A stretch of DNA of 64,000 nt. It comes from Eledone cirrhosa (taxonomy: Eukaryota). The first letter of the stretch is position 1; each line of letters opens with the position of its first letter. The position numbers and the translations under genes were made by a program. The stretch lies in assembly GCA_964016885.1 (NCBI GenBank), contig OZ024749.1, positions 9,796,001 through 9,860,000 of the forward strand, given 5' to 3'. The notes under the pieces were generated by a model. It worked only from the letters and a program-made list of their open reading frames with translations, made no database searches and was not told the DNA's origin. Below, one piece after another: positions 206 through 53,518 of the stretch.

Positions 206-381
206 AGTTTTAATATTGATGAGATTCTACAGGACTAGAACTGTTTCATTATTTAGAAAGGTTTCTAAAGAATGAAACAGTTCTAGTCCTGTAGAATCTC
301 ATCTATATTAAAACTTTTATACTCTGCAATGTATTGAGTACCTTACTTACTGTGGTTACCTCCGATTCAACCCGGAATAAC
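206..381 (+). mobile_element. Asymmetric fold-back element A (54-bp arms plus unique tail), Penelope-like terminus
   Basis: 206-259 and 262-315 are reverse complements with 2 mismatches. The tail contains ATTGAGTAC. Flanked by (TA)n. Confidence 0.6.
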
Positions 382-431
<50 letters not shown>

Positions 432-435
<4 letters not shown>

Positions 436-624
436 CGAAGGAATTGTGGTAAGGAACCAGATGGACCATAACGCACCAGAGTACTCAATACTTTGGGTAG
501 TAGAGTGGGAAATAAGAAAAAGTCTGACCCCGACAGCAGAGCTCAAGCCGATTCGACGGCTATTTCTAGACTGTCTAGAAATAGCCATCGAGACGGCTTG
601 AGCTCTGCCGTCGGGGTCATACTT

Positions 625-630
<6 letters not shown>
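432..630 (-). mobile_element. Asymmetric fold-back element B (56-bp arms plus unique tail)
   Basis: Arms are 516-571 and 573-628. Homologous to 15283-15490. The tail carries GTACTCAATAC. Flanked by (TA)n. Confidence 0.65.
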
Positions 631-655
<25 letters not shown>

Positions 656-664
<9 letters not shown>

Positions 665-920
665 TGTAAGCTATCGCCGTTTTTGACTAAAGAAATTAAA
701 TAAATTATTTAGCCTGATAGAGGGGTTAAGAACCCTCGGAGAAATGGAAAAAGATGAGTATTGACGTACAATACTCATCTTTTTCCATTTCTCCGAGGGT
801 TCTTAACCCCTCTATCAGGCTAAATAATTTATTTAATTTCTTTAGTCAAAATACGGCGATAGCTTACATTTCTAATAATTTCAAACCCGCCCGCTGTTTC
901 GAAAATATTCTTACTTGAAT
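656..920 (+). repeat. Near-perfect palindrome (~108-bp arms, 5-nt loop) plus short tail
   Basis: 656-763 and 769-877 are reverse complements apart from one 1-nt indel. Loop is ACGTA. Confidence 0.85.
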
Positions 921-1480: not shown

Positions 1481-1842
1481 TAATATTATAGAGTAAAATG
1501 ACTTCAACCTGTCCAGCCTCCTGTCATTTTACTCTATAATAATTAACTCCATTCCCGCACCAATAGGATTCAACATCAAAGATGGATGAGTTGAGTAACG
1601 TTGAGTGCTTTCCTATTACATCCTGTTACATAGCGGAATGACCAATTCTGCCCTGTGGTATATATTCCACGTTAGCATGGGTTAGACAGGAATTGTCCCA
1701 CTTGAGGCAAGATTGATCGGGTGACCGTGTCTCACTCGTATAGGACTATCTGGCAGGTATTCTATGGCTGGAAGCCCTTCCTAACACCAACCACATTTAC
1801 AGTGTGGACTGGGAACCTTTTTACCATGTTTCCTACACAACC

Positions 1843-13054: not shown

Positions 13055-13399
13055 CTAACTTATAGATGAACTCTTCTAAGATGTAGGTTGTCCACCTCAC
13101 TGAGAGGTGAAGCTGGAGTGTCCCGGTGCAACTGCTACATGTAAATCCTACCTTCTTAGCTAAACTTCCTGAGATCCCACTACATCTCATGTGTACCCAT
13201 AGTTTGCATATGGGACAGAGGATGGAGTTCCTACCTACACCTTTCCTACATACTGAGCAAGGCCATTTTCCCGAGGGGATCTGGGTTGTTTTCTCTTCTA
13301 CTTACTAAGACCTTAGTCTTTGTCTGATTGACTTTAAGACCCCTTCTTTCTAGGCCCTGCTTCCATGTTTGGAATTTCTTCTCTAGTTCAGCCATTGAT
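13055..13399 (-). mobile_element. RTE RT fragment, inverted against the adjacent copy
   Basis: The minus strand reads MAELEKKFQTWKQGLERRGLKVNQTKTKVL. Confidence 0.75.
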
Positions 13400-14762
13400 G
13401 ATCTAACGCTCATAGCTGAATCAATGGCTGAACTAGAGAAGAAATTCCAAACATGGAAGCATGGCCTAGAGTCAAAAAGCCTTAAAGTTAACTTGTCTAA
13501 GACTAAAGTCCTAGTTTGTAGAAAGGAAAATAAGGCGCAGGTACCCTCAGGGAAATGGCCATGCTCAGTGTGTAGGAAAGGAGTAGGCAGAAATTCAATT
13601 TTATGTCCCAAATGCAAAGTATGGGTACATAAAAGATGTAGTGGGATCACAGGAAAACTATCTAAGAACGTAGACTTTATATGTGGCCGATGCTCAGGTG
13701 CAATAGGTAGCAGGTGTCCACAGGATACTAGGTCCTTCTATTGCCCAGATGGTTCTATAGAAATAGTAGACACTTTCCGTTACCTGGGTGACAAAATCAG
13801 CAGTGGTGGAGGGTATTCTAAAAGTACAGTAGCCAGAGTCAGAACGGGATGGAAAAAGTTCAGAGAGCTAATACCGCTGTTGGCAATAAAAGGTTTCTCT
13901 CTAAAAATGAAAGCAGATTGTATGATGCCTGTATATGAACAGCAATGCTACATGGCAGTGAGACATGGGCATTATGTGCAGAGGACCTGCGCAGACTGGA
14001 AAGGAACGAAGCATGCATGCTCCGTTGGATGTGTAATAGTAATATATGTGAACGGCAAAGCATAAATGAGCTAAGTGAGAAATTAGGAATAAGAGGGATC
14101 AGATGCTGTTTACTTGAGAGAAGACTACGTTGGTATGGCCACGTGATGCGCATGAAAGACGACAGCTGTATAAAAAAGTGCAGGGCGATCAAAATTGATG
14201 GAAGTTACAGAGTAGGTAGACTCAGAAAAATCTGGGATGATTTGATAAATTCCGACCTTACACACTTGCACCTCTCTAAGACAATGTCACTGGACCGAGA
14301 TCTTTGGCGCTATGCAGTAATACAGAAGACCCACCTTGCCTATGTACAAAGCGAAACCTACAGTCAGTAGGCACCTCTTAACCAAATATACACCCCAATC
14401 CACTACCCCTACCCTATCCTCCCACTCCCACCAACACCACCCACTCTCTGTAAAGTTGGTACCACAACATCCAATCCAAATAAATGAGATAATGAGATCA
14501 AGATCGTGTAGGTGTCACGAGAAAAAAAACACATAGTCCACGCTGTAATGTGGCCGTGTAGGTAACACGGTAAAAAGTTCCCAGTTCCACACTGTAAATG
14601 TGGTTGGTGTTAGGAAGGGCATCCAGCCATAGAAAACCTGCCAGATAGTCCTATATGAGCGAGACACGGTCACCCGACCAACCTTGCCTCAAGTGGGACA
14701 ACTCCCGTCTAACCCATGCTAGCGTGGAAAATGGACATTAAACGATGATGATGATGATGATG
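13397..14762 (+). mobile_element. 5'-truncated RTE LINE with 3' UTR and (GAT)n tail
   Basis: DDLTLIAES..PHD-like Cys cluster..FRYLG..MLHGSETW..RLRWYGHVMR, with one frameshift near 13915. Confidence 0.9.
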
Positions 14763-15282: not shown

Positions 15283-15485
15283 AATGAAGGAAATGTGGTA
15301 AGGAACCAGATGGACCATAACGCACCAAAGTACTCAATACTTAGGGTAGTAGAGTGGGTAATAGGAACGAGTAGGACCCCGACGGCTGAGCTCAAGCCGT
15401 TTCGACGGCTAATTCTGGACTAAAATTTTAGTCCAGAATTAGCCGTCAAAACGGCTTGAGCTCAGCCGTCGGGGTCCTACTCGTT

Positions 15486-15490
<5 letters not shown>
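15283..15490 (-). mobile_element. Second copy of fold-back element B (65-bp arms, no loop)
   Basis: 15361-15425 and 15426-15490 are reverse complements with 1 mismatch. The tail is homologous to 432-515. Confidence 0.7.
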
Positions 15491-20640: not shown

Positions 20641-21947
20641 CAGGGTGCGGACAATATTTGTTCGCAATTTTCAACTGCTAATTTTATGTAAATTTTTTTT
20701 AATTCCGTCATCACTCTTGTCTTCATAAAAACAGTGACTATAATTCTATTATTTATTTTCAGAATAATTGATTATGAATAATTTTGAACCTCCAAATTTA
20801 TGGAAGAGACACAGACTTCTTCTTGGAATCCGCGGCGGGAGGACAAATATGGAAATTTCAGACTTTCTCAGCATCAGCAGGAGAATGGTGGAAAAAGTCC
20901 GAAAGGAATTGGAAGATTCAGGATTCGACTACGAAGCAACATCAGAGGGGAAAACACATGACTGACGATCTGATGCCTTCAGAACGCCCGAGTTCGTCAC
21001 TGAAGTTCAGGATATCATCAACAATGAACCTAGCAAGTCGATGCATGCCATTCCAAGGGAGAAAGGCGTGGATGAAAAGCTCATTAGGCTGGTGGCACAT
21101 GAAGACATTCGCTACGTTTCATACAAGATGATGAAAGGACAATTTCTGTCAAAGGTGATGCAAGAAAAGTGACTGAAGCACGCAAAGAAGCTGATCAACA
21201 AGTTGAAACACCCACTGGGGCCAGACATGCTGTGGTTTTTCTCCGACGAGAAAAACTTCTGCCAAGACCAGATGATCAACTCCCAGAACAACAGGTGGCT
21301 CGCTGTCTCATCCAAAGATGTGCCCAGAGTCATGCAGACAAAGTTTCCAGCGACAACATTGGTCTTAGGTGTTGTCAGCAGTCAAGGTGATGTCATGCCA
21401 CCTCACTTCTTCCCTGAGGGCCTCAAGCTGAACACCGATGGCTACATCCGCATTCTGAGCGAGGTAGTAAAGCCCTGGATCGACCAGGTAGCTGCAGGTA
21501 GGCCGTACGTTTGGCAGCAAGACTCAGCGCCCTGCCATACCAGCCGAAAGACCCAAGCCTGGCTGTCAGAGAACTTCGTCGACCACACTTCACCTGACAT
21601 CTGGCCTCCCAGCTCGCCTGACTGCAACCCCCTTGACTTCTTTGTGTGGGGCACAGTGGAACGAGACACCAACAGATCTAGCTGCAATACGAAAGACGAT
21701 CTGAAGGCCAGGATCACAAGTGCCTTTAGAGGCCTAAGTCAGGGGACAGTGACGAAGGCCTGTAGCCGGTTCCAAAGCCGCCTTGAGGCCGTCATCAAAG
21801 CCAATGGCGGGTTTATCGAGTGAGATTGAAAGAACAAGTCATGAAGACAAACTGACCCAAGTTTGATAAATATATCTTAAAAAATAAAACTACTGTGTTA
21901 TTTTTTCCTAGACATTAATCTTGCGAACAAATATCGTCCGCACCCTG
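20641..21947 (+). mobile_element. Full-length Tc1/mariner element, DD37D (maT) family
   Basis: 27-bp TIRs CAGGGTGCGGAC(A/G)ATATTTGTTCGCAA, TA on both sides, 1307 bp. Confidence 0.95.
20774..21823 (+). pseudogene. DD37D transposase with two in-frame TGA stops
   Basis: One frame from ATG 20774, with stops at 20963 and 21169. FFSDEK..QQDSAPCH..SPDCNPLD; 37 residues between the 2nd and 3rd Asp. Confidence 0.9.
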
Positions 21948-22608: not shown

Positions 22609-22859
22609 CTGGAGAAGACAATGACAAGATGGAAGAGAAATTATTGAAAATCAAAACTGATGGAACTTTGCATATATATATATACGTATGTGTGTGGATG
22701 TATGTGAGTATATGTGTACATATATATTTATATATTGTCCAGTTATTAATATTGTTAATATTAATAATACTCCATAAGAAAAATCTGTAGAGTGCTTCAA
22801 ATCTGTTATAAAATGAACTCATATAACTCATTGTTTATATGTATATATATATATAATAA

Positions 22860-23660
22860 TAATAAAATGACAGGAGGCTGGACTTGTGTAAATCCTTGAA
22901 AGGTTTATTATACTATGATCATTTCAATGACTGGGTTCCATATGAATCCGGTGATATCATCAGGTATTCGAAATATAATAAATGAATGTAATAGATAAAA
23001 TCCATGGGGCTGAAAATCAAAGACCGGAGGGCGACCGACCATCTAGCGTCTTCCACTTTAGCCGGTCGCCCTCAAGTGCTGGCTATTCGGTCTGCTTGAG
23101 GCTATCTGGTGAGGGGGAGTAAAGCTTATAGTGTGCTACTACCCTCCCGGTCAAATAGAAGAAAAACAGAAAGGGAGAAGAAGATAAGTCAGCGTTAATA
23201 TCATGCTACACGAAAAAAGACAGAAAGAAGGGGAAGAAAAGTCAGCATTAATGTCGAGCTACAAGAAGAAAGACAGAAAGAGGAAGAAAAGTCCGTACTA
23301 ATGTCAAGCTAGTCAGGCCAGGAATGGCGCAATGGTCGGTCGCCCTCCGTTCTTTGATTTTCAGCCCCATGGATTTTATCTATTACATTCATTTATTATA
23401 TTTCGAATACCTGATGATATCACCAGATTCATATGGAACCTGGTCATTGAAATGATCATAGTATAATAAACCTTTCAAGGATTTACACAAGTCCAGCCTC
23501 CTGTCATTTTATTATAATATTTAACTCCGTACTCGCACCACCAACTACACAAACCAAGACGGTTGAACTGCTTTACGTTGAGTACTCTCCATATTATTAC
23601 ATCAAGATTGACCATACGAAATTGACCAGCTCTATCCAGTGGTGAACCTTCAAACCTAAA
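22860..23660 (+). mobile_element. Large asymmetric fold-back element (~180-bp arms, ~290-bp spacer, tail) with hammerhead-like motifs
   Basis: 22860-23042 and 23332-23514 are near-perfect reverse complements. CTGATGA..GGAAC..GTC occurs in each arm. The tail contains TTGAGTAC. A related remnant lies at 1485-1660. Confidence 0.7.
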
Positions 23661-25349: not shown

Positions 25350-26500
25350 GATAGGACTGGGGTTGTTTCTATCATTAAAACACGAGAAACTCCCTGTGAA
25401 ATTCGACATTGTAGGAGGCCAGCTAAACCTACATAGGTGTGAGCTGTGACAACATGGTAGGACTGGGGTTGTTTCTATCATTGAAACACCCAAGAAACCT
25501 TCTATGAGATGCAATCTCATAGGAGGCCAGCTAAACCTCCATAAGTGTGAGCTGTGACAACATGGTAGGACTGGGGTTGTTTCTATCATTGAAACACCCA
25601 AGAAACCTTCTATGAGATGCAATCTCATAGGAGGCCAGCTAAACCTCCATAAGTGTGAGCTGTGACAACATGGTAGGACTGGGGTTGTTTCTATCATTGA
25701 AACACCCAAGAAACCTATGAGATGCAATCTCATAGGAGGCCAGCTAAACCTCCATAAGTGTGAGCTGTGACAACATGGTAGGACTGGGGTTGTTTCTATC
25801 ATTGAAACACCCAAGAAACCTTCTATGAGATGCAATCTCATAGGAGGCCAGCTAAACCTCCATAAGTGTGAGCTGTGACAACATGGTAGGACTGGGGTTG
25901 TTTCTATCATTGAAACACCCAAGAAACCTTCTATGAGATGCAATCTCATAGGAGGCCAGCTAAACCTCCATAAGTGTGAACTGTGACAACATGGTAGGAC
26001 TGGGGTTGTTTCTATCATTGAAACACCCAAGAAACCTATGAGATGCAATCTCATAGGAGGCCAGCTAAACCTCCATAAGTGTGAGCTGTGACAACATGGT
26101 AGGACTGGGGTTGTTTCTATCATTGAAACACCCAAGAAACCTATGAGATGCAATCTCATAGGAGGCCAGCTAAACCTCCATAAGTGTGAGCTGTGACAAC
26201 ATGGTAGGACTGGGGTTGTTTCTATCATTGAAACACCCAAGAAACCTATGAGATGCAATCTCATAGGAGGCCAGCTAAACCTCCATAAGTGTGAGCTGTG
26301 ACAACATGGTAGGACTGGGGTTGTTTCTATCATTGAAACACCCAAGAAACCTTCTATGAGATGCAATCTCATAGGAGACCAGCTAAACCTACATAGGTGT
26401 GAGGTGAAATCTTTAACATAGGACTGGGGTTTCTATCATTAAAACACCTGAGAAACTCCTGTAAGATGCAACCATGAGGTAAACCTACATAGGTGGGAAG
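25350..26500. repeat. Tandem repeat, 105/108-bp unit
   Basis: AGGACTGGGG recurs at 25459, 25567, 25675 and 25780; about 11 copies. Internal hairpin CTATGAGAT-GCA-ATCTCATAG. Confidence 0.95.
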
Positions 26501-26541
26501 TGTAAGTTTGTAATAACAGTAAACCACAAAATCACACAAAC

Positions 26542-26738
26542 CTTATCCATATGAGACTCCATGTATCGGAATGTGTACTCATCAGCGTCAATGATTTGAA
26601 ACTCATACTCATTCAGCTCCACAATAGCTCCAATCCTAAAGTCACTGGCGCTGTAATATTTCATAGGTTCTATGTTGAATTTCTCCTGGCCAGGTAATTT
26701 AACATGAGTTCGGCTGAGAAATGTATTAATCTTCGTAT
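26542..26738 (-). CDS. EFHC2: EFHC2-like, exon 8 (end of third DM10 domain)
   Basis: ttctag|AT..AAG|gtttgt; (D)TKINTFLSRTHVKLPGQEKF..IIDADEYTFRYMESHMDK; 197 nt, phase 1/0. Confidence 0.9.
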
Positions 26739-27221
26739 CTAGAATCAATGCAAACAAAAAAAAAACACCAATGACTAAAGATCAAATAAAGACCACAATA
26801 CACACACATATATCATGCACACGCACATATACATATACATATATACATACACAATGGTCAGAATGCTGTGCTGAATAGGACCTGTCCCACCCTTGCAAGC
26901 AGGGAAAACTGGGCGTAAAATAATAATGATTTCTAGTATAAGCACAAGGCCAGTAATTTGAAGGCGAGGGGAAAGTCGATTAAATTGACCCCAGTGCATT
27001 ACTGGTGCTTTATTTTAGCGACCTGGTGAGGATGAAAGGCAAAGTTAACCTCGGCGGAAATTGAACTCAGGCCGTAAAGGGCCGTAACTCTATGCCGCAA
27101 AGCATGGTGTCCGACTCTCTACCGATACTGCCAATCCACCAGGCGTAAAATAATAATGATGATGATGATGATGATGATGAAATGTAGCAATTTATGAAAG
27201 GTCAAAACTACACCAGCTCAC

Positions 27222-27530
27222 CTGTATTTTCATGAGTGTGCATACTAATTTTAATTGTATCATCTGACAGGTAGAAACTGATGATGAATTCTTCGTTTGT
27301 TGTGGTGATGTTTTTCGTTACCATCTTACCAAGGAAACGCAGTACACGACTGTTAAAACCCTCTTTGTCGTATTTGAGGAACTGCAGAAAGTTTGATTGT
27401 TTCGCCTGTATAACAATTTTATAGCAGTTTTGCATGGAATCCTCTTCACTCCCAAAACCATTGTAAGGGGGGTAGGTTAGAGGTGTTGGTTCTTCAGGGA
27501 CTTCCTTTTCTTCAAGTGGTGTAAATTCAA
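27222..27530 (-). CDS. EFHC2: EFHC2-like, exon 7
   Basis: ctccag|TT..G|gtgagc; YPPYNGFGSEEDSMQNC..VLRFLGKM..FIISFYLSDDTI; 309 nt. Confidence 0.92.
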
Positions 27531-27849
27531 CTGGAGATAGAAACGTAAGAGATATATAGCATTACAAGAAAACATTGTTTACACACACACACACAAATAT
27601 ATATGTATATATATAAGTTATCCCTATCCAGGGATAACTTGAACCATTTAGGTATATTCTCCTTGGTTATGTCAAATATTTATAAAACACACTTCATATT
27701 TTATCTGATGATAGCGTACCAAAATGTTGGTACCCTTGAAATATATATAATAGAATAAATATGGTTTTATAAATATAGTTTCCATTTATCATTGTATATT
27801 ATACTCCAGAAAATCTGTTGAGTGCTCTGAATCAGTTATAAACATTTAT

Positions 27850-28140
27850 ATGACTTTCGGAAACATTTTTTCACGCTTAGAGTTGCTGAAGCATGGAACA
27901 AACTGCCTGCGTCAGTTGTTAGCTGCCGAGACATTGCATCCTTTAAAACCCTCATGCTTCCCGAAATTCGCCAAAACTACACCTGATGTCCCCCTTCCAT
28001 ACACATACACACATGTGTATATCATGACTCATGCACTGTTCATTTTCCTGACGTTTGTACATTACCCTATGTACTATACATACACTTTTGATGAGTTGTA
28101 GTGCACCTGAGCACTGTACACAATATTTCATTATTATTAT
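27850..28140 (+). mobile_element. CR1-clade LINE 3' end
   Basis: DFRKHFFTLRVAEAWNKLPASVVSC plus 3' UTR and (ATT)n; same family as 57928-59060. Confidence 0.8.
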
Positions 28141-28182
28141 TTTATATTTGTTGAATTACCAACAAATTGAATATCCCTTCTG

Positions 28183-28220
<38 letters not shown>

Positions 28221-28381
28221 CATATCATCATTTTACATCCGCTTTTCCCTGCTTGCAAGGGTGGGACGGGAACTGATTCTGGCTTGATTTCTACAACTGG
28301 ATGCCCTTCCTAACACCAACCTCATTTACAGTGAGTGCTGGGTGCTTTTTTCGATTGCAAGGCCAATGCTCTAACCACTAA

Positions 28382-28467
<86 letters not shown>

Positions 28468-28469
28468 TA

Positions 28470-29001
28470 ATTAAAAAAATGTTTTCGCTCTACATGGCTG
28501 AATACAATAAATGTAATCTGAGTTTTTCGAATATTAATAATAATATTCGATTCGTTTGCAATTATGCAAACAAGCCTCATTTTTAAAGCCATGTCAGTAG
28601 AATGAGCCCCTCATTCTTGCTCTTGTGATGGCATGTAAACAGAACTGCAGACACTAATGTTTCTTGGTATTACCCTTCATCAGTACTGTTCACTGTTCAC
28701 CTGCCAACTGTCAGAACTAGTGAAAATATATATTTTCTAAAATATACAGTGACTGACTGCATATTAGCAGATCCACTGATTAGTCAGATCTGCATATTAG
28801 CAGACTGGCTGATCAGTCAGATCTGCATATTAGCAGACTGGCTCATCAGTCAGATCTGCATATTAGCAGATCCATTGATCAGCCAGATTTGCATAGGGTA
28901 ATACCCAGAAACATTAGTGTCTGCAGTTCTGTTTACATGCCAACACAAGAGCAAGAATGTGGGGCTCATTCTACTGACATGGCTTTAAAAATGAGGCTTG
29001 T
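28470..29001 (-). mobile_element. Asymmetric fold-back element (~107-bp arms) carrying a hammerhead motif
   Basis: 28570-28676 and 28895-29001 are reverse complements; short tandem repeats lie in the spacer; (TA)n flanks. Confidence 0.7.
28642..28691 (-). ncRNA. Type I hammerhead ribozyme-like motif
   Basis: Minus strand: GAACAGTA-CTGATGA-A-GGGTAATACCAA-GAAAC-ATTAGT-GTC-TGCAGTTC. Stem I pairs at 7 of 8 positions; the base of stem II is imperfect. Confidence 0.6.
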
Positions 29002-29323
29002 AATTATATATATATATATATATATACTAGCAGTGGTACCCGGCGTTGCACGGGATAAGGTATTTTGGAATGCGCGCCAAATAAAATAAAATAAAGTACC
29101 AGTAATACACTGGGATAATTGCTGGCCTTGTGCCAAAAGTAGAAAGAATTATTATTATAATTGATGTTTTGTTTTGGCAAAATATTGATGACAGACAAGT
29201 AATTGTTTTATTCGAGGTTAACTTTGCCTTTCATCCTTCCGGGGTCGATAAAATAAAGTACCAGTAATGCACTGGGTTATTGCTGGCCTTGTGCCAAAAG
29301 TAGAAACAATTATTATTACATAC

Positions 29324-29462
29324 CAATTCCATATTTTGTTTTGTAGAAATTCTTAGTAAATTCGTCACAGTTACAGAGCTTGAGGGGTCGGCCATACACA
29401 CTGATGATGTCACCGAGTCGTAAATCTTCAGCAGAGTAATAGGGAATATTTACTTCACCTAT
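29324..29462 (-). CDS. EFHC2: EFHC2-like, exon 6
   Basis: ctaaaag|ATA..G|gtatgt; IGEVNIPYYSAEDLRLGDIISVYGRPLKLCNCDEFTKNFYKTKYGI; 139 nt. Confidence 0.88.
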
Positions 29463-29496
29463 CTTTTAGCAGAAAGAAAAAAATATATATATATTT

Positions 29497-32400
29497 TACT
29501 ACAGGTATTGAGTTGATGGTGAGTCCTGTACCACTGTGTGGATTAGGGGGCACTACAGGTAGTGTGTTGGTGGTGAGTCTTGTACCACTGTGTGGTGTAG
29601 GGGGCACTACAGGTGGTGTGTTGGTGGGGAGTCCTGTACAACTGTGAGGAGTAGGGGGCACTACAGGTATTGAGTTGATGGTGAGTCCTGTACCACTGTG
29701 TGGAGTAGGGGGCACTACAGGTATTGAGTTGATGGTGAGTCCTGTACCACTGTGTGGAGTAGGGGGCACTACAGGTAGTGTGTTGGTGGTGAGTCTTGTA
29801 CCACTGTGTGGTGTAGGGGGCACTACAGGTGGTGTGTTGGTGGTGAGTCCTGTACAACTGTGAGGAGTAGGGGGCACTACAGGTATTGAGTTGATGGTGA
29901 GTCCTGTACCACTGTGTGGAGTAGGGGGCACTACAGGTATTGAGTTGATGGTGAGTCCTGTACCACTGTGTGGAGTAGGGGGCACTACAGGTAGTGTGTT
30001 GGTGGTGAGTCTTGTACCACTGTGTGGAGTAGGGGGCACTACAGGTGGTGTGTTGGTGGGGAGTCCTGTACAACTGTGAGGAGTAGGGGGCACTACAGGT
30101 AGTGTGTTGGTGGTGAGTCCTGTACCACTGTGAGGAGTAGGGGGCACTACAGGTAGTGTGTTGATGGTGAGTCCTGTACCACTGTGTGGAGTAGGGGGCA
30201 CTACAGGTAGTGTGGTGATGGTGAGTCCTGTACCACTGTGAGGAGTAGGGGGCACTACAGGTAGTGTGTTGGTGGGGAGTCCTGTACCACTGTGAGGAGT
30301 AGGGGGCACTACAGGTAGTGTGGTGATGGTGAGTCCTGTACCACTGTGTGGAGTAGGGGGCACTACAGGTAGTGTGTTGGTGGGGAGTCCTGTACCACTG
30401 TGTGGAGTAGGGGGCACTACAGGTAGTATGTTGGTGGGGAGTCCTGTACCACTGTGAGGTGTAGGGGGCACTACAGGTAGTGTGGTGATGGTGAGTCCTG
30501 TACCACTGTGAGGAGTAGGGGGCACTACAGGTAGTGTGTTGGTGGGGAGTCCTGTACCACTGTGAGGAGTAGGGGGCACTACAGGTAGTGTGTTGATGGT
30601 GAGTCCTGTACCACTGTGAGGAGTAGGGGGCACTACAGGTAGTGTGGTGATGGTGAGTCCTGTACCACTGTGAGGAGTAGGGGGCACTACAGGTAGTGTG
30701 TTGGTGGGGAGTCCTGTACCACTGTGTGGAGTAGGGGGCACTACAGGTAGTGTGTTGGTGGTGAGTCCTGTACCACTGTGAGGAGTAGGGGGCACTACAG
30801 GTAGTGTGTTGGTGAGGAGTCTTGTACCACTGTGTGGAGTAGGGGGCACTACAGGTAGTGTGTTGATACCACTGTGTGGAGTAGGGGACACTACAGGTAG
30901 TGTGTTGGTGGTGAGTCTTGTACCACTGTGTGGTGTAGGGGGCACTACAGGTAGTGTGTTGGTGGTGAGTCCTGTACCACTGTGTGGAGTAGGGGGCACT
31001 ACAGGTAGTGTGTTGGTGGGGAGTCCTGTACCACTGTGTGGAGTAGGGGGCACTACAGGTAGTGTGGTGATGGTGAGTCCTGTACCACTGTGGAGTAGGG
31101 GGCACTACAGGTAGTGTGTTGGTGGTGAGTCCTGTACCACTGTGAGGAGTAGGGGGCACTACAGGTAGTGTGTTGGTGAGGAGTCTTGTACCACTGTGTG
31201 GAGTAGGGGGCACTACAGGTAGTGTGTTGGTGGGGAGTCCTGTACCACTGTGAGGAGTAGGGGGCACTACAGGTAGTGTGTTGGTGGGGAGTCTTGTACC
31301 ACTGTGTGGAGTAGGGGGCACTACAGGTAGTGTGTTGGTGGTGAGTCCTGTACCACTGTGTGGAGTAGGGGGCACTACAGGTAGTGTGTTGGTGGGGAGT
31401 CTTGTACCACTGTGTGGAGTAGGGGGCACTACAGGTAGTGTGTTGGTGGGGAGTCCTGTACAACTGTGAGGAGTAGGGGGTACTACAGGTAGTGTGTTGG
31501 TGGGGAGTCCTGTACCACTGTGTGGAGTAGGGGGCACTACAGGTGGTGTGTTGGTGGGGAGTCCTGTACCACTGTGTGGAGTAGGGGGCACTACAGGTGG
31601 TGTGTTGGTGGGGAGTCCTGTACAACTGTGAGGAGTAGGGGGCACTACAGGTGGTGTGTTGGTGGGGAGTCCTGTACAACTGTGTGGAGTAGGGGACACT
31701 ACAGGTAGTGTGTTGCTGGTGAGTCCTGTACCACTGTGTGGTGTAGGGGGCACTACAGGTAGTGTGTTGGTGGTGAGTCCTGTACCACTGTGAGGAGTAG
31801 GGGGCACTACAGGTAGTGTGTTGGTGGGGAGTCCTGTACCACTGTGTGGTGTAGGGGGCACTACAGGTAGTGTGTTGGTGGTGAGTCCTGTACCACTGTG
31901 AGGAGTAGGGGGCACTACAGGTAGTGTGTTGATGGTGAGTCCTGTACCACTGTGAGGAGTAGGGGGCACTACAGGTAGTGTGTTGATGGTGAGTCCTGTA
32001 CCACTGTGTGGAGTAGGGGGCACTACAGGTAGTGTGTTGGTTGGGAGTCCTGTACCACTGTGTGGAGTAGGGGACACTACAGGTAGTGTGTTGGTGGGGA
32101 GTCCTGTACCACTGTGTGGAGTAGGGGGTACTACAGGTGGTGTGTTGGTGGGGAGTCCTGTACAACTGTGTGGAGTAGGGGACACTACAGGTAGTGTGTT
32201 GCTGGTGAGTCCTGTACCACTGTGTGGAGTAGGGGGCACTACAGGTAGTGTGTTGGTGGTGAGTCCTGTACCACTGTGGGGAGTAGGGGGCACTACAGGT
32301 AGTGTGTTGATGGGGAGTCCTGTACCACTGTGAGGAGTAGGGGGCACTACAGGTAGTGTGTTGGTGGTGAGTCCTGTACCACTGTGTGGTGTAGGGGGCA

Positions 32401-32996
32401 CTACAGGTAGTGTGTTGGTGGTGAGTCCTGTACCACTGTGAGGAGTAGGGGGCACTACAGGTAGTGTGTTGGTGGGGAGTCCTGTACCGCTGTGAGGAGT
32501 AGGGGGCACTACAGGTAGTGTGTTGGTGGGGAGTCCTGTACCACTGTGAGGAGTAGGGGGCACTACAGGTAGTGTGGTGATGGTGAGTCCTGTACCACTG
32601 TGAGGAGTAGGGGGCACTACAGGTAGTGTGTTGATGGTGAGTCCTGTACCACTGTGTGGAGTAGGGGGCACTACAGGTAGTGTGTTGGTTGGGAGTCCTG
32701 TACCACTGTGTGGAGTAGGGGACACTACAGGTAGTGTGTTGGTGGGGAGTCCTGTACCACTGTGTGGAGTAGGGGGTACTACAGGTGGTGTGTTGGTGGG
32801 GAGTCCTGTACAACTGTGTGGAGTAGGGGACACTACAGGTAGTGTGTTGCTGGTGAGTCCTGTACCACTGTGTGGAGTAGGGGGCACTACAGGTAGTGTG
32901 TTGGTGGTGAGTCCTGTACCACTGTGGGGAGTAGGGGGCACTACAGGTAGTGTGTTGATGGGGAGTCCTGTACCACTGTGTGGAGTAGGGGGCACT
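29497..32996. repeat. Minisatellite, 54-bp unit, about 65 copies
   Basis: GGGGCACTACAGGTAGTGTGTTGGTGGTGAGTCCTGTACCACTGTGTGGAGTAG; intronic. Confidence 0.95.
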
Positions 32997-33261
32997 GAAG
33001 TCCCCTTGAAACTGCCCTTCATTCCATGATAGAAAACCTTCAGGTTCCAAACACCAGCTTCATAATGAGAAAGTAAAATATTTTACTAAATCCCTCCAAA
33101 TTTTTTATTATTTTTCAAAATGATTTGAAAATTTTAGGCAGTTTCTTTCATTAGAAATACACTAAATTTGTTGCTTATTTTAAAGTGTTTATATTTGTCT
33201 AAAATCTTTCATCATAACTTTATGTAAGCAGCTTTGTTAAGTTAAGCCCCAAACATCAGAT

Positions 33262-33457
33262 TGATAATTGTTTCTACTATTGGCACAAGGCCAGCAATTA
33301 TGTCAGTACATTACTGGTACTTTATTTTATCGACCCCGTAAGGATGAAAGGCAAAGTTAAGCTCGGCGGGATTTGAACTCAGAATGGCAAGGGCCGTAAC
33401 TCTATGCGTCAAAGAATTGCGTCCGACCCTCTACCGATACTGCCAATTCACCGCCCT
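33262..33457 (-). mobile_element. Short tRNA-derived SINE (~190-bp family)
   Basis: Reverse complement of 11085-11280. Further copies near 24720-24860, 26925-27142, 37017-37199, 56672-56780 and 63791-63985. Confidence 0.8.
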
Positions 33458-34192
33458 CAGATTGATAATGGTTTCTAATTTAGGTTGAAGGCCAACAATT
33501 TCGGGAGTGTTGTGGGGAGAGGAAAATCGATTTTGCCAACCCCACTATTTTGCTGGATGTTTGTGGCCTAGTGGTAAGGGTGTTGGACTTACAATCATAA
33601 TGTTGTGGGTTTGAATCCTGGGCCGTGTTGTGTTCTTGAGCAAAAAATACTTCATTTCACATTGCTCCCAAATACCTAGCTGAAAATGAGTACCAGCAAT
33701 AACTGGGGGTTAAACCCTGTGATGGACTGCAGTCCTGTCCAGAGGGGAAGTCTTGTACTCTCAGTCACTTTATGCCACAGAAACTCTGATAAACACTGGC
33801 ATAGTGAGCCTCCAAGCTTCAGACAGACTACTTTGCTGCTACTTTATTTTATCGACCCCGGAAAGATGGAGGGGGAAGTTTGACCTGAGCGGAATTTAAA
33901 ACCAGAATGTTGAGAGAGGGCCTTGGATAGCAACCGTGAGCTTGGCTGGTCTCACTTGGAGATCCAGCTGGATCAAATGGAAACAGTTGCTTCTGACAGG
34001 AGCTGTTAGGTATGCTTGAGGACTTTAACCCTCTGACCCTCTCAGGAATAAGTGGGTGACGGAGGAGGAGGGGGAGTGAGGAGGAGGAACAGGAGAAAGG
34101 GGAGGTGTGTTGAACAACTGACACACTGAACATCAAAACAGAAATCTATTCCATTCTATTTTCTACTACTTCTTTCCATCAATATTGTCCAG

Positions 34193-34389
34193 GTTTTATT
34201 GGTGGAAAGTTCTTGGAACGGAGTCGTGTGAAGAAACCTGATGAAGAGAAATTCACTGTTGAACCATCGAAATATTATTTAGCTGAAGACTTATATGTCG
34301 GTAATATTGTCCAGTTTGTAAAGCATCAGTTTATTATAACTGATATAGATGAATATGCTGTGAACTACATGGAAACAAGGCCAGAGCAG
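34193..34389 (+). CDS. Isolated intact exon of a second EFHC2 paralog, antisense within intron 5
   Basis: Pyrimidine tract and gtccag|GT..CAG|gtaagt; (G)FIGGKFLERSRVKKPDEEKF..ITDIDEYAVNYMETRPEQ; 197 nt, phase 1/0, same geometry as exon 8. Whether it is expressed is unknown. Confidence 0.7.
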
Positions 34390-35148
34390 GTAAGTTGCTG
34401 GCTTTTACTGACCTTAACATATTCTTCATCATATTTCTAATAACTTGGACTATTCTTATCAAATAATTCTGAAAATATTCAGCAATTTGGAAATATTTAG
34501 TAATATAACTAACTTTCTCATTATTAAACTAGTGTTTGGAACATAACTTAACAAAGGTTTCTACATAAGATTAAGAGATCACAGCGCTGATTCTATGGGC
34601 ATATGGTTAGAATGCCTCAGGAAAGAATCTCTGGACAGATTTTACAAGCAAAACCAACAGGTAGGAGACCCAGAGCAAGATGGTTGGATAACAGCCATGA
34701 GCTTGGCTGGTCACACTTGGAGAGAGTTGCTTCTGACAGGACCTGCTGGAAGAAGTGTTTGACGACACCATAAATATAAATACTTTAACCCTTTCATCAC
34801 CATATTTCTAATAACAAACTGTCTGTGATTTACAAATAATTTTGGAAATATTCAGTAATTTGGAGGAATTTTCGTAATGTAGCTAACTTTCTCATTATCG
34901 GACTGGAGATTGGAGAATAACTTAATAAAGGTTCTTGCATAAAATTATGATGGAAGATTTTTTGATACAGATAAATGATTTAAAACAAAGTTTTGTATCA
35001 TGGAAGTTTTGGTATAAATATGTTAAATAATGTCTGAAAAAAAAAAAGGTGTACAAGTTGGAATGTCTTTAACCCCAGATCTGCTGTAACAGAGCCCACC
35101 TGGAGTTAAACAACATAAAGTAGTGTGTATGTTTAAAAGAGTTGTTAC

Positions 35149-35253
35149 CTGTAACCCATCATAAATAAATCGGTTGTCTTTATGAACAGAACCAAATACA
35201 TTCAGCATAGTTCGGTCACATATCTTTCCTGGAAAGTTCACATAATGTTCTCC
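35149..35253 (-). CDS. EFHC2: EFHC2-like, exon 5
   Basis: ttacag|GGA..CAG|gtaaca; GEHYVNFPGKICDRTMLNVFGSVHKDNRFIYDGLQ; 105 nt. Confidence 0.85.
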
Positions 35254-35299
35254 CTGTAAAACATTTTAAAATCATTAATTAATAATTGTATCACTTACT

Positions 35300-35660
35300 C
35301 TAAGTCTCACCTCATCTAAACATTTCTCACCTACTAAGATTACCTACCCTTCCTACCCATCATCATTTCCTACCCAGTAAAGTTTGTATTTCTCTTGTTT
35401 CTATTGCCTGTCAGTAATCTTGCTAAGGCACCCCTCCATTTCACCTCATGTACACACTGTACACCTACTTCTCTTCTCTCTAACAGTTCCACAATTTCAC
35501 CTGATTTACCTTTCAGGTTACCAACTTTGAGGGTGGTAATTCTGAGATTTCTACCATGACAGTTTGTTGTTACTTTCTTGGGTAGAGGTTCTAAGTACCT
35601 GAAAGGGAAAGTGGTTGTTCGATTGCTTGATGACAGTTGAGGGCTTCTTGCACATCTAGC
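35300..35660 (-). mobile_element. RTE AP-endonuclease N-terminal fragment
   Basis: LRITTLKVGNLKGKSGEIVELLERREVGVQCVHEVKWRG. Confidence 0.65.
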
Positions 35661-36073
35661 CACCCCACTAATCTAGCCACCCCACCACTCTAGCCACCCC
35701 ACTAATCTAGCTACCCCCACTAACATGTGCAGCACTAACATGGCTAGTGTTAGCCCTATGTACACAATTAGTGAGAATCATATTGGTCGTGCTTTTCATA
35801 TCTTGGCTCAGTTTTTATGCCCTTCCTATCACCAACCACTTTACAGCGTGTACATATGTATGTGTGTGTATGTGTGTGTTTGCATATAAATGCATGTATA
35901 CACACACACACATATATACATATATCATCATCATCATCGTTTAACATCTATCTTCCACTCTAGCATGAGTTAGATGGGTTTGTCCCATTTAGAGGCAAGC
36001 TGTGTCGGTGACCCTGTCTCGTTCATATAGGACTGTTTCTTGCTGGTTTTCTATGGCTGGATGCCCTTCTTAG

Positions 36074-36252
36074 TGCGCAACGCAACGCAGCGCAACACAA
36101 CACAACACAAAACCACAAAACAAAACAACACAACACAAAACAACACAACAAAACAACACAACACAAAACAAAACAACACAACACAAAACAACAAAACAAC
36201 AAAACAAAACAACACAACAAAACGCAACGCAACGCAACGCAACAACAAAACA
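36074..36252. repeat. Degenerate pentanucleotide repeat (CAAAA/CAACA/CAACG)
   Basis: Directly visible; starts ~25 nt into intron 4. Confidence 0.9.
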
Positions 36253-36275
36253 ATCCAATCCAAGAATTTGGAGAC

Positions 36276-36527
36276 CTTTGGTATTTTTGATCTTCGTACC
36301 AAGACAGATCCCATTTCTTGGCCACAATTTGGAGGAAACACCTCCCGAACTTCCATTGTGTCGTCAGATAAGAAGTAGAAGAGGATACATTTATGGACAA
36401 TACCACTTTCACTTGGAGTGTCATCCCAGGTACAGTAGAAACGTAGGACGTGCATGTCGTGTTCCAGAAACTTCTTCAGGGTGTCGATCCTCTTGTAGGG
36501 TCTCAATGGCATTTGGGCCTCATCTAT
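36276..36527 (-). CDS. EFHC2: EFHC2-like, exon 4 (second DM10 domain)
   Basis: gtacag|ATA; IDEAQMPLRPYKRIDTLKKFLEHDMHVLRFYCTWDD..YFLSDDTMEVRE..RRSKIPK|gtctcc (weak donor); 252 nt. Confidence 0.88.
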
Positions 36528-37507
36528 CTGTACACAAAGAAATAAAGAAGACCACAGATTGAGGACGGTTTGGTAGGGGGAGGGGTTTTGTTGTTGTTGT
36601 TGGTGGTAGTGGTGGTGGTGTAGTGGCGGTGGTGGTGGTGTAGTGGCGGTGGTGGTGGTGTAGTGGTGGAGGAGGGGGATGGTGGGGTTGTAGTGGTGTA
36701 GTGGGGGGTAGTAGTCGTGGTGGTGGTGTAGTGGCAGTGGTCGTGGTGATGGTGTAGTGGGGGGGTAGTGGTCGTGGTGATGGGGGGGGGGGTAGTTATG
36801 TAGTAGTAGAGGTGGCGGTCCTCCTCCACCCCCACCCTCTACTCAGGCACTCCCAATTCCTTTGTCCCCCATCTTGTCATCACTTTTTCTGTGAAAGGCC
36901 CCACACCAACCACTACACCCAGTCCTTCCTACCCAGAATGTTGACCCACTGGAACTGACAGGGACCTCGTGAAGGCCGTGACCCCTTTCACTTCTTGCAG
37001 ACCTACAAAGTAAAAATAATAATTGTTTCTACTTTAGGCACAAGGCCAGCAATTACCCAGTGTATTACTGGTACTTTATTTTATCGACCACGTAAGGATG
37101 AAAGGCAAAGTTAACCTCGTCAAGATTTGAACTCAGAATGGCAAGGGCCGTAACTCTATGCGTCAAAGCATGGCGTCCGACCCTCTGCCAATTCACCGCA
37201 AAAATAATAATAATAATACACTCCCTCCCTTCCTTCTTGTGTCTTCAAGAGGAGTTGATTGGCAGCCATTTAATCATCATAATCATCTTCATAATCATCA
37301 ATGTTTTGGGTCTCAAAGGTACTGAGAAGGTTATGGACACTGCCCCTTCCCTTTCTAACTAAACACCATCATCATCATTCTATGCTGACATGAACTAGAC
37401 AGGTTGTCACAGTCCAAAATTAAATGTGTCACAGACACATCTCCTCCATACATTCCATCTTGGGGAAAGGTTTTTTTACAGCTTCATGTCCTTCCTAATG
37501 CCAAACA

Positions 37508-39590
37508 ATTTACAGAGTGTACTGGGTGTATTTTATCAAGACACCGGTGATTACTACTTTACAGAGTGTACTGGGTGTATTTTATCAAGACACCAGTGTT
37601 ACTACTTTACAGAATGTACTGGGTGTATTTTATCAATGCAGCAGTGTTACTACTTTACAGAGTGTACTGGGTGTATTTTATCAACGCAGCAGTGTTACTA
37701 CTTTACAGAGTGTACTGGGTGTATTTTATCAACGCAGCACTGTTACTACTTTACAGAGTGTACTGGGTGTATTTTATCAACGCAGCAGTGTTACTACTTT
37801 ACAGAGTGTACTGGGTGTATTTTATCAACGCAGCACTGTTACTACTTTACAGAATGTACTGGGTGTATTTTATCAAGACACCGGTGATTACTACTTTACA
37901 GAATGTACTGGGTGTATTTTATCAAGACACCGGTGATTACTACTTTACAGAATGTACTGGGTGTATTTTATCAATGCAGCAGTGTTACTACTTTACAGAG
38001 TGTACTGGGTGTATTTTATCAAGGCACCAGTAATTACTACTTTACAGAGTGTACTGGGTGTATTTTATCAAGACACCGGTGATTACTACTTTACAGAGTG
38101 CACTCGGTGTATTTTATCAAAACACCAGTGATTACTACTTTACAGAGTGTACTGGGTGTATTTTATCAAGACACCGGTGATTACTACTTTACAGAGTGTA
38201 CTGGGTGTATTTTATCAAGACACCGGTGATTACTACTTTACAGAGTGTACTGGGTGTATTTTATCAAGACACCGGTGATTACTACTTTACAGAGTGTACT
38301 GGGTGTATTTTATCAAGACACCAGTGTTACTACTTTACAGAATGTACTGGGTGTATTTTATCAATGCAGCAGTGTTACTACTTTACAGAGTGTACTGGGT
38401 GTATTTTATCAACGCAGCAGTGTTACTACTTTACAGAGTGTACTGGGTGTATTTTATCAACGCAGCAGTGTTACTACTTTACAGAGTGTACTGGGTGTAT
38501 TTTATCAACGCAGCACTGTTACTACTTTACAGAGTGTACTGGGTGTATTTTATCAATGCAGCACTGTTACTACTTTACAGAGTGTACTGGGTGTATTTTA
38601 TCAACGCAGCACTGTTACTACTTTACAGAGTGTACTGGGTGTATTTTATCAACGCAGCACTGTTACTACTTTACAGAGTGTACTGGGTGTATTTTATCAA
38701 GGCACCAGTGATTACTACTTTACAGAGTGTACTGGGTGCATTTTATCAAGGCACCAGTAATTACTACTTTACAGAGTGTACTGGGTGTATTTTATCAAGG
38801 CACCAGTAATTACTACTTTACAGAGTGTACTGGGTGTATTTTATCAAGGCACCAGTAATTACTACTTTACAGAGTGTACTGGGTGTATTTTATCAAGGCA
38901 CCAGTAATTACTACTTTACAGAGTGTACTGGGTGTATTTTATCAAGGCACCAGTAATTACTACTTTACAGAGTGTACTGGGTGTATTTTATCAAGGCACC
39001 AGTAATTACTACTTTACAGAGTGTACTGGGTGTATTTTATCAAGGCACCAGTAATTACTACTTTACAGAGTGTACTGGGTGTATTTTATCAAGGCACCAG
39101 TAATTACTACTTTACAGAGTGTACTGGGTGTATTTTATCAAGGCACCAGTAATTACTACTTTACAGAGTGTACTGGGTGTATTTTATCAAGGCACCAGTA
39201 ATTACTACTTTACAGAGTGTACTGGGTGTATTTTATCAAGGCACCAGTAATTACTACTTTACAGAGTGTACTGGGTGTATTTTATCAAGGCACCAGTAAT
39301 TACTACTTTACAGAGTGTACTGGGTGTATTTTATCAAGGCACCAGTAATTACTACTTTACAGAGTGTACTGGGTGTATTTTATCAAGGCACCAGTAATTA
39401 CTACTTTACAGAGTGTACTGGGTGTATTTTATCAAGGCACCAGTAATTACTACTTTACAGAGTGTACTGGGTGTATTTTATCAAGGCACCAGTAATTACT
39501 ACTTTACAGAGTGTACTGGGTGTATTTTATCAACGCAGCACTGTTACTACTTTACAGAGTGTACTGGGTGTATTTTATCAAGGCACCATG
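37508..39590. repeat. Minisatellite, 48/49-bp unit, about 43 copies
   Basis: TTTACAGAGTGTACTGGGTGTATTTTATCAAGGCACCAGTAATTACTAC. Confidence 0.95.
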
Positions 39591-39693
39591 GCTACAACTT
39601 TAACAAGTCAGTAACAACAAAACAACAATTAGTTATTAAACAAGCACAAGGGTTTTCTCCGGTTGGGAGCCAAAATACTAAACTTCAACTTAC

Positions 39694-39917
39694 AGCTTTG
39701 CGAAATTCTGTGTAAGGATCCATAGGTACTTGAGCAGGGTTTGGGATCTTCACCCCAGATTTGTACAGGAACTTGTAAGTGAAATGGTCACAGTTTACAA
39801 TCTTGAACACTTTACCATAGATGTTGATTTTCACACCAATGTTGAAGTCGTCAATGGTATAGAACTCCTTGTGGTGTGGGGCTGGCTTAGGAATGCGATG
39901 TCTATGCACAATGGTAC
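39694..39917 (-). CDS. EFHC2: EFHC2-like, exon 3
   Basis: ttgcag|GT..GCT|gtaagt; (G)TIVHRHRIPKPAP..FYTIDDFNIG..YGKVFKIVNCDHFT..DPYTEFRKA; 224 nt. Confidence 0.92.
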
Positions 39918-40170
39918 CTGCAAGTGGAAGCACAAAGAGACAAGGAGAGAGGTGCCAATGATGTTGAATTGTCATTGCCAGATCAGACCAAGGAAACTAT
40001 ATTTCTATTGGCCTTTTCATGGCTGATGCTATCTGCCTGTGGCAACTCCTGGGTTGGAGATGGGATTTCAATATAGAACATGTAGAGCTGGAACACATAC
40101 ATCAAAGCATCTTACCCAACATTTTAACACTTCCAATAATACATTGGCCATGGACTGGGACTTTATTTAA

Positions 40171-40378
40171 CCCTTTACCATTTAAGCTGGCTGTATCCAG
40201 CCAGAATTCTCTCACCTCTTTCTGTTCAAACCGGCCATAATTGGCCACTTATACCAATGTTAAGGTATTGTTCTCATAATAAATAATTTTAAAATCTCAT
40301 AGATTCAATATTATGTGAGGTAAAGCCTTTACCGTGAAAATACAATAGTATATATAGAGTAATGTAAATATTAAAGGG
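40171..40378. mobile_element. piggyBac-like MITE
   Basis: TTAA|CCCTTTA ... TAAAGGG|TTAA; 208 bp. Confidence 0.75.
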
Positions 40379-40667
40379 TTAACAACCTCAAAAGAATGAA
40401 AAGCAAAGTTGAGCTTGCTGGGATTTTAACCCAGAATACAGTGAGCCACGATAAATACAGTGGCATTTAACCCAATACTCTAACGACTAATTTGCCACTA
40501 ATCATCATCATCATCATTTATCGTTCATTTTCCACGCTAGCATGGGTAGGACAGGCAGTCCCTTAGTGAGAGATCAGGTGAAAGGACCTTGATATGCATA
40601 CATGGAACTGATTTTGGCTTGATTTCTACAGTTGGATGTGGGGAAATAAGTTATCAATGACACCTAC

Positions 40668-41007
40668 CTTGGTTGAGTCTACTGTTTCGCCTTTTAATGC
40701 TGATTATCTCAATGGTATCGTCTTCAAGATGAAAATAGATCATACATTCGTGAATTCGATAAGTCTCTTCTCTTTGTTCTTGAACTGACTCATGATAATA
40801 AGCACTGAAACTGAGCACTTGTCGATCAAAAGTAAGCCACGAAGGCAATGTTGAATCCCTGGCAAAAGCCATTTCTGGACGTATGGGAGGTAACTCCTGG
40901 TTAGGTCGAGGCTCACCTCCAATTCCTGGTTTACTTTCACCAGCATAAAACTGTTCATTTCCCACTAAGTAGAAATGATGGGACCTATGAAATTTTGTCT
41001 TCCCAAC
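40668..41007 (-). CDS. EFHC2: EFHC2-like, exon 2 (first DM10 domain)
   Basis: tttcag|GTT..G|gtaggt; VGKTKFHRSHH..KPGIGGEP..PSWLTFDRQVLSFSAY..IYFHLEDDTIEI; 340 nt. Confidence 0.93.
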
Positions 41008-41159
41008 CTGAAAATGAAGGTGATCAATTTATAAAGTAAAAACCTCCAAGACTGATTAAAGAGGTCAGGGAGATATCCCCAAACCAAAGAACTGGTTTAA
41101 ATTCTTACAGCAGAATAGATCCACCTGGAGTGACTCTCTGATCTCCGAGAGTCACTCCA

Positions 41160-53307: not shown

Positions 53308-53518
53308 TGTGGTAGAGCACTGGAAAGTTATATCCGTAGTGAGTAAAGCAGTCAGTCCATAGGACGAGTTCAGTATAAAGTTAGTTCCACAACATATTAG
53401 TAAACCATACTAAAGGACAAGTGTTTCATCTAACGGATTGTTTTAGTTGAAAATCTGTTAGATGAAACACGTGTCCTTGAAGGTGGTTTGCTAATATATT
53501 GTGGAACTAACTTTATAT
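53308..53518 (-). mobile_element. Asymmetric fold-back element (~66-bp arms)
   Basis: 53374-53439 versus 53452-53517. One arm contains ATCT-GTT-AGAT-GAAAC-ACGT-GTC. (TA)n flanks. Confidence 0.6.

Follow-up and report, generated by a model that had tools for sequence, protein, structure and literature searches.

The three palindromes at positions 206–920 of the window, the 64 000-nucleotide stretch of Eledone cirrhosa DNA analysed here, very probably originate from Penelope-like elements (PLEs). They are likely to represent the shortest insertion products of several PLE families, mostly likely of the Hydra clade or non-coding derivatives. An earlier note on this DNA had taken them for ultra-short PLE-type insertion products and their layout agrees with this reading: an inverted 5'-truncated copy, a tail on one side only and a (TA)n target match the PLE insertions described in the available text of two studies (PMC8557442, PMC3846280). 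PLE membership was assigned from non-coding anatomy, as no RT or GIY-YIG ORF is linked to these ends; the coding part of a PLE is not expected in inserts this short (170–800 nt).

Sequence searches and read alignment

A total of 298 ORFs of the window were searched against Pfam, comprising 296 stop-to-stop frames of at least 55 amino acids outside tandem repeats and elements together with two of the 81 shorter frames at the elements; GIY-YIG was not found among them. A scan of the window for Hydra motifs gave scattered chance matches and no motif cluster. Hammerheads were sought using a relaxed type I parser, which was run on the window and on 60 shuffles. The descriptor of the tail stem was built once most of its sites had already been seen, and one site (22769) was recovered by the descriptor only. 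Four public sequencing runs were aligned to positions 100–1110 of the window, runs containing only a small share of the sequence being set aside; no RNA run was among those listed. X1 may be the window's own source, and X21 consists of raw reads from another study with the same species label. Figures for joints and loose ends were taken from the alignments listed, beyond which there were another 57 joints and 892 loose ends; joints may include library chimeras and some may hold unaligned letters inside.

Anatomy of the palindromes

The earlier description of three near-perfect palindromes within (TA)n, each with a one-sided tail, was found to be real, with arms, tails and shuffle scores in agreement. 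The arms of element A (206–259/262–315) are 54 bp in length with two mismatches and those of B (516–571/573–628) are 56 bp in length with five. C has core arms of 83 bp with perfect complementarity (681–763/769–851) and its palindrome extends via one indel to 659/877, giving arms of about 108 bp. All three elements are bordered by (TA)n and carry a tail on a single side (66 nt in A, 77 nt in B and 41 nt in C). The short-loop fold-backs A, B, C and E (a further element described below) scored 36–83, compared with a best score of 13 and none of 30 or more in 30 local dinucleotide shuffles. The loops measure 0–2 nt in A, B and E, and E folds at a short AT palindrome. A target-site duplication is unreadable inside (TA)n. 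The parts of the three elements are as follows.

206–259, minus strand: inverted tail-less arm of A, with two mismatches to the direct arm over 54 bp; runs into (TA)n at 169–206
262–315, plus strand: direct arm of A, with stem II at 262–273, GAAA at 274–277, helix III, predicted cleavage after 293 and the 3' strand of helix I at 294–299
316–381, plus strand: one-sided tail of A, with a bulged stem at 321–339
435–511, minus strand: one-sided tail of B, with a bulged stem at 506–483
512–571, minus strand: direct arm of B, with a GAAA-like box at 554–551 that is damaged in this copy, a 6-bp helix III and a GUC ending at 532
573–628, plus strand: inverted tail-less arm of B, from the fold-back search
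659–768, minus strand: inverted tail-less arm of C, extending 5–6 nt beyond the direct arm in the 5' direction, as far as the tRNA-like T-arm of the family reads
769–877, plus strand: direct arm of C, lacking a hammerhead
878–918, plus strand: one-sided tail of C (41 nt), lacking the shared stem; arm and tail are joined in family contigs

A fourth multi-copy repeat lies in the same TA tract at 950–1100; it is covered by about 1,100 X21 reads and is not palindromic here.

Related elements in the window

The same layout was confirmed at five other sites (D–H), so that the window holds eight inserts in which an inverted copy stands head-to-head with a direct copy, all eight with one-sided tails (41–137 nt). 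D, F, G and H follow the plan of A–C and E but have longer or imperfect centres. The tail-less arm meets (TA)n in every insert except D, in which it runs into the ATG-repeat end of a SINE. The elements had been proposed to form one recurring family, a claim that was abandoned: B is related to E (85% over 196 nt) and D to F (74% over 116 nt), while A, C, G and H have no match among the other elements of the window. The shared architecture spans at least six families. Symmetric TIRs with constant ends were not seen; the tails are one-sided and the centres are variable. Upstream of F, G and three lone hammerheads (I, J and K) lie 90–370 nt of non-coding sequence. The further elements and fragments are listed below.

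1485–1659, plus strand: D, a short fold-back with a 118-nt tail, of the family of F; stem at 1546–1606
15284–15490, minus strand: E, the second family-B copy, which folds back at a different centre; stem from 15355, GAAA intact (15403)
22760–22838, plus strand: family-I copy that consists of a tail alone (78% over 49 nt with I), with the stem from 22769 that was found by the descriptor
22856–23655, plus strand: F, with 187-bp arms, a 289-nt spacer, a 137-nt tail and a stem at 23524–23583
23411–23460, plus strand, and 22963–22914, minus strand: hammerheads of F, one full type I hammerhead per arm
27614–27852, plus strand: I, a lone hammerhead (27705–27749) followed by a tail stem (27803–27823), with an 11-bp mini-inversion at the 5' end
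28470–29001, minus strand: G, with a full hammerhead (28683–28650) in the direct copy and a 100-nt tail that lacks the shared stem
45513–45562, plus strand: third fragment of family B, tail-less and sharing its end site with the inverted arms
53308–53517, minus strand: H, a fold-back with a hammerhead 3' half (GAAA at 53427, cleavage after 53416) and a tail with a relaxed stem from 53369
53635–53662, plus strand: K, a lone minimal type I hammerhead with no tail stem
61128–61238, plus strand: J, a lone hammerhead-like motif with a weak helix I, followed by a tail stem at 61211

The spacers of F (23157–23311) and G (28757–28895) contain internal tandem repeats (53 bp × 3 and 33 bp × 4, respectively) upstream of the hammerheads. 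D is flanked by facing 372-nt copies (94%) of a tRNA-like SINE composite at 1118–1489 and 1880–2251, within which Rfam tRNA scored 28.1 bits at 1155–1212 and 2157–2214.

Predicted hammerhead ribozymes

Six hammerhead cores were identified by the relaxed parser: one in each arm of F and those of G, I (27705), K (53635) and, weakly, J (61128). Five sites scored at least 7, compared with a mean of 0.73 and a maximum of 4 in the shuffles. A strict descriptor returned a single site (K) and, with one mismatch allowed, three sites where 1.5 were expected. No Rfam family reached its gathering score in the window, with Hammerhead_HH10 touching A (199–303) only at E = 5, and the Rfam miRNA matches were discarded as hairpin or TA noise. 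The predicted type I hammerhead is complete in F, G, I and K and in family-A reads; B/E and H hold the 3' half only, the core of H being degenerate, while J is weak and C has none. The window contains no tandem hammerhead array.

Element A had been likened to the 3' half of a hammerhead, and in position this was upheld by reads that add CUGAUGA at the palindrome centre. Other family-A copies carry CCTGATGA directly before 262 (1934 X21 raw reads, 137 X1 contigs and one X5 contig), and the six bases preceding their CUGAUGA core pair with window positions 294–299 as helix I. Since the reads place this core right before 262, the palindrome of A folds exactly after the hammerhead core. The original parse of helix III was dropped, because helix I pairs only if cleavage is at 293; helix III is now read as A-CAG...CTG-U, with predicted cleavage after GUA at 293 and helix I at 294–299.

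The inverted arm of G begins right after CUGAUGA and the arms of H probably do likewise. The proposed coincidence of palindrome centre and ribozyme core was thus retained for three of the seven families with an identifiable hammerhead (one of them doubtful). As F, I, J, K and many A copies extend past the core, a stop at this point is not obligatory. In B/E the GAAA, a 6-bp helix III and the GUC are present, and the family-majority letter at 551 restores the GAAA of B, which can alternatively close a local hairpin. No CUGANGA was found within 30 nt upstream of B in the loose ends of reads, the agreement of which was poor (0.45–0.52 in X1 and X21).

A predicted bulged stem in the tails

The predicted RNA stem consists of RCTC, a 4-bp inner stem with a variable loop, a 2-nt bulge, GAGY and then RCT. 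The motif TTGAGT(A/G)C, which the earlier note had seen in several tails, forms its 3' side. All six occurrences in the window lie in element tails or just after a lone hammerhead; an enrichment across the window was rejected (six seen, 4.2 expected). The 8-mer is common to three of six family tails, a level reached in 33 of 5000 shuffles. The strict stem descriptor found eight distinct sites in the window, compared with a mean of 0.57 and a maximum of three in 200 shuffles. The inner 4-bp stems differ in all six families that carry them (A, B/E, D/F, H, I and J), but 23 of the 24 cells are paired, a result that one in 720 permutations reaches. In A, B, E, D, F and H the stem starts 4–5 nt beyond the point at which the tail-less arm ends, a point that is uncertain by a few bases owing to TA microhomology. 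It lies 25–63 nt downstream of the predicted cleavage site and also follows the lone hammerheads I and J. It is absent from C, G and K. In minimum-energy folds it appeared in full or in part in A, F, I and J and was missing in B, E and D, as was the outer helix of H.

Six 10-mers were compared with the supplement of PMC8557442 and, in the part available, matched solely in two Hydra-clade consensi. The six novel Hydra consensi of the same source were inspected by eye: the stem was complete in three (at the 3' ends of Hydra-2_Amil and Hydra-2_Ajap and at the 5' start of Hydra-1_Ajap), partial in two (Hydra-1_Amil and Hydra-1_Crog) and absent from one (Hydra-1_Obim, a consensus that stops shortly after the hammerhead). 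Five TT-bulge 10-mers had no match in the available supplement. A seven-letter stem motif showed no clear stem by eye in the 30 listed of its 44 matches, all in Naiad or Chlamys parts, which makes a weak control. A viral scan with a hammerhead-plus-stem pattern returned 12 loci with two distinct sequences, neither of which had paired stems. From this comparison, which covers Hydra consensi, the bulged stem is a candidate marker of the Hydra clade; it is proposed here and is not a published criterion. The stem-bearing families are probably of Hydra type, their inserts probably being 5'-truncated 3' ends of such elements.

Copies in the public reads

The 3' ends of the families are fixed and the 5' junctions are variable: the centres of B and E differ and several more centres occur among the joints listed. 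Tail-less family-B arms end at 512, where 1033 X21 reads switch to (TA)n, and tail-less family-A arms end at 315 (one X5 contig), with a tandem joint at 318. This tandem joint (318→262, with 21 letters between) corresponds to head-to-tail 78-nt units and was present in 82 X21 reads (15 starts) and two X1 contigs. Joints 270→316, 270→321, 270→328 and 272→323 of family A were each represented by 26–28 X21 reads with three or four starts, and 270→328 was present also in X1 and X4 contigs. Sequence that the tailed copy lacks is present in the inverted arm also at the joints 770→843 and 768→845 in C and 471→593 in B. At 701/831, 721/811 and 728/804 the two arms of C depart from the family majority in the same, mirrored way, and those of B do so at 568/576. 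The arms were likely made at each insertion, as copy-specific variants are shared by both arms at mirrored positions.

Element C and its tRNA-like head

Behind position 770, 698 X21 reads lead on into a tRNA-like T-arm in reverse complement, which holds a motif similar to the B-box consensus. The head is visible for 30 nt only, too short a stretch to reach an A box, as a consensus of the 698 reads with an agreement of 0.76. Inverted arms of C reach 768–770, both in the window and in two of the joints listed, and the 5-nt loop of C belongs to the inverted arm. No copy of the tRNA-like head was found in the window (five matches compared with 3.0 expected; no ARAGORN hit), and a scan of metagenomes with a 22-nt C pattern gave three loci, all chance matches of at most 32 nt. 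C matched nothing else in the window, including the LINE remnants, and ends in a unique tail at (TA)n.

C may be a tRNA-headed passenger moved by PLE-type machinery; the rival reading is an ordinary SINE or a tRNA-gene trailer caught in a PLE-type event. On a tentative joint reading, which we regard as possible and no more, C would be a ribozyme-free PLE parasite with a tRNA head (a PLE-driven SINE), the tRNA module replacing the hammerhead, and the bulged stem of its neighbours would be an RT docking signal, kept from corals and sea cucumbers to octopus, that sets the two start sites of a twin-primed PLE insertion.

Formation of the palindromes

An inverted 5'-truncated copy often stands before PLE insertions, which have a one-sided tail (PMC8557442). 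An anole PLE cuts and extends both strands in vitro using uncleaved RNA, and its RT starts at two internal sites that bound the tail (PMC11167929). Two minimal hammerheads on opposite strands 100–700 bp apart, as in F, have been reported as probable truncated PLEs (PMC4209133). For the inserts described here, a GIY-YIG nuclease would nick both strands of (TA)n, and a first cDNA would be initiated at the distal end of the tail by the RT, whose position the bulged stem likely sets. A second cDNA would start on the other strand just before the stem, by short TA microhomology. Both would terminate prematurely, in some copies at the folded core of the hammerhead, and would be joined head-to-head at their 3' ends. 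The template was likely uncleaved RNA, since the predicted cleavage site lies within the arms of A, B/E, F, G and H. C would have been moved by the same kind of machinery from a tRNA-headed RNA.

The involvement of two separately primed cDNAs is favoured only slightly, because the joints may include chimeras or hold letters between their sides. A palindrome of the same PLE origin might also arise by snap-back, in which a single cDNA folds on itself or an antisense template primes itself and is copied back, with a nuclease resolving the product at the tail. Self-priming is how the inverted-junction palindromes of PLEs were read by Arkhipova et al. (2013) in the text available (PMC3846280); the mirrored shared variants fit it too, as do the minimal loops of A, B and E and the AT palindrome at which E folds. 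We hold this route to be the less probable one. Snap-back from the tailed cDNA would leave nothing in the inverted arm that is absent from the tailed copy, yet such extra sequence is found at the joints listed above, in some of which the tailed piece has no arm at all, and in the C loop; loops of 0–2 nt are also tight for self-priming. A separate question is whether the sources were the 3' ends of coding elements or non-autonomous retrozyme-like units (78 nt in A) borrowing PLE proteins. The latter is suggested by the head-to-tail hammerhead units in family-A reads, by the lack of coding sequence beside any window copy and by animal retrozyme consensi of 51–972 bp that are described as PLE derivatives in the available text of a preprint (bioRxiv 10.64898/2026.07.22.740005). 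It nevertheless appears rather unlikely: the tandem joint occurs in 82 reads, whereas 1934 run on upstream with a T-rich consensus resembling a 3' UTR, upstream non-coding sequence accompanies F, G, I, J and K, the window holds single copies and no array, and partial tandems are normal for coding PLEs (PMC8557442).

Explanations outside PLEs carry very little weight. Near-perfect inverted repeats with TA flanks would suit MITEs or fold-back DNA transposons that target TA, and the window holds a Tc1/mariner-type DDE remnant (21173–21820, plus strand; DDE_3, E = 2e-4), which is itself unrelated to the palindromes. Such an origin is highly improbable in view of the one-sided tails, the variable centres with fixed outer ends, the hammerheads, the tail-only (22769) and tail-less (45513) fragments and the mirrored copy-specific variants. 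Fold-back artefacts of assembly or library preparation were considered because the inner 83 bp of C are perfectly complementary and no read or contig among those listed spans the window's own palindromes. They are equally improbable: the arms differ at two, five, one and more positions, the same layout is present in the X21 raw reads of another study and each inverted arm stops against (TA)n at the boundary of the family tail, a limit that would mean nothing to an artefact.

Genomic setting and implications

The window is animal intron DNA with DM10-domain exons, LINE-type RT remnants, tRNA-like SINEs and many tandem repeats; the best match of one exon is Octopus vulgaris EFHC2-like (72% over 65 residues). 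The DM10 exon at 34114–34437 lies on the plus strand and the other four DM10 matches (26488–41028) on the minus strand, indicating a local inversion or a mis-oriented piece in an EFHC2-like gene. At 13123–13698 a LINE fragment carries an inverted 5' piece of its own, with a 20-nt centre and arms that are about 80% complementary; this is a LINE inversion of the ordinary kind and differs from the tailed palindromes. Three LINE ORFs (13328–14062, plus strand; 49556–50950 and 51330–52046, minus strand) have a PHD-finger-like insert directly after the RT domain. Two minus-strand frames (55260–55655 and 59166–59737), with no Pfam support, presumably resemble the restriction-like endonuclease end of R4/Dong-type LINEs.

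The formation of the inverted ends and tails of PLEs is open and was named as a next task by Craig et al. (2021; PMC8557442). The minimal inserts reduce the PLE reaction to its cis-elements, and the bulged stem is a candidate RT recognition signal across phyla. Overlapping and non-overlapping arms can be counted as a test of twin priming versus snap-back. Should C be confirmed, passengers with a small-RNA head would be known from PLEs as well as from LINEs and LTR elements. In octopod (TA)n, many short palindromes would be PLE scars, likely missed or annotated as MITEs or miRNA hairpins.

Comparison with known systems

The architecture, the hammerheads and TA targeting are already known. No report of a conserved Hydra tail stem, of twin priming by PLEs or of a tRNA-headed PLE passenger was found in the open literature searched; the families themselves may be annotated in Repbase or in subscription papers, and the supplementary stem-loop figures of PMC11167929 may be relevant to the stem. 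No text match was obtained in the Frangieh supplements.

Ohshima and Okada reportedly named three octopus tRNA-derived SINE families in 1994. C resembles tRNA-derived SINEs in that its family reads lead upstream into a tRNA-like T-arm, but it has a unique 41-nt tail and an inverted tail-less arm in place of a simple-repeat LINE tail.

Animal non-LTR retrozymes are likewise non-coding type I hammerhead units, which the tandem 78-nt units of family A recall (PMC7229834; bioRxiv 10.64898/2026.07.22.740005, in the text available), whereas the window copies are single, inverted, tailed inserts and not arrays. Naiad PLEs (Naiad_Obim and Naiad_Ovul; PMC8557442) share the (TA)n target and an inverted copy with a 30–40-nt tail, and their lack of a canonical hammerhead fits C and perhaps B. 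In contrast, A, F, G and I have canonical hammerheads, and the available text describes no tRNA head for Naiad; five short B and C motifs had no match in the part of the supplement with the Naiad consensi. By eye, GAAA precedes CUGAUGA at the 3' end of the Naiad_Obim consensus, which could be a permuted hammerhead.

Elements of the Penelope/Poseidon group (Penelope of D. virilis, Pen2a and Pen3a of Adineta and PAc of the anole) have an inverted pLTR with a junction palindrome and a one-sided tail (PMC3846280, PMC11167929). Two RT starts bounding the tail beside a stem-loop, AT-rich targets and an uncleaved template are further likenesses that we infer for the present inserts. According to the text available, their tails are 30–40 nt in length and lie at the ORF start, whereas those in the window measure 41–137 nt, C coming nearest to that range, and frames from the hammerhead AUG close within 20 codons (by eye in A, F, G and I).

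The closest known relatives are likely to be Hydra elements, C-terminal-EN PLEs with canonical hammerheads and (TA)n targets that include an Octopus bimaculoides member, Hydra-1_Obim (Craig et al., 2021; PMC8557442). The inserts described here differ in having no ORF, in their length of only 170–800 nt and in the long palindromic helix III of A and B, and the available text on the Hydra clade mentions no stem. Common to both are the (TA)n target and a type I hammerhead near the 3' end, traits that are not unique to the clade, and an inverted 5'-truncated copy is noted there for Penelope-13_HM. The bulged stem lies 38–47 nt past the cleavage site in three of the Hydra consensi, as counted by eye, and 25–63 nt past it in the window.
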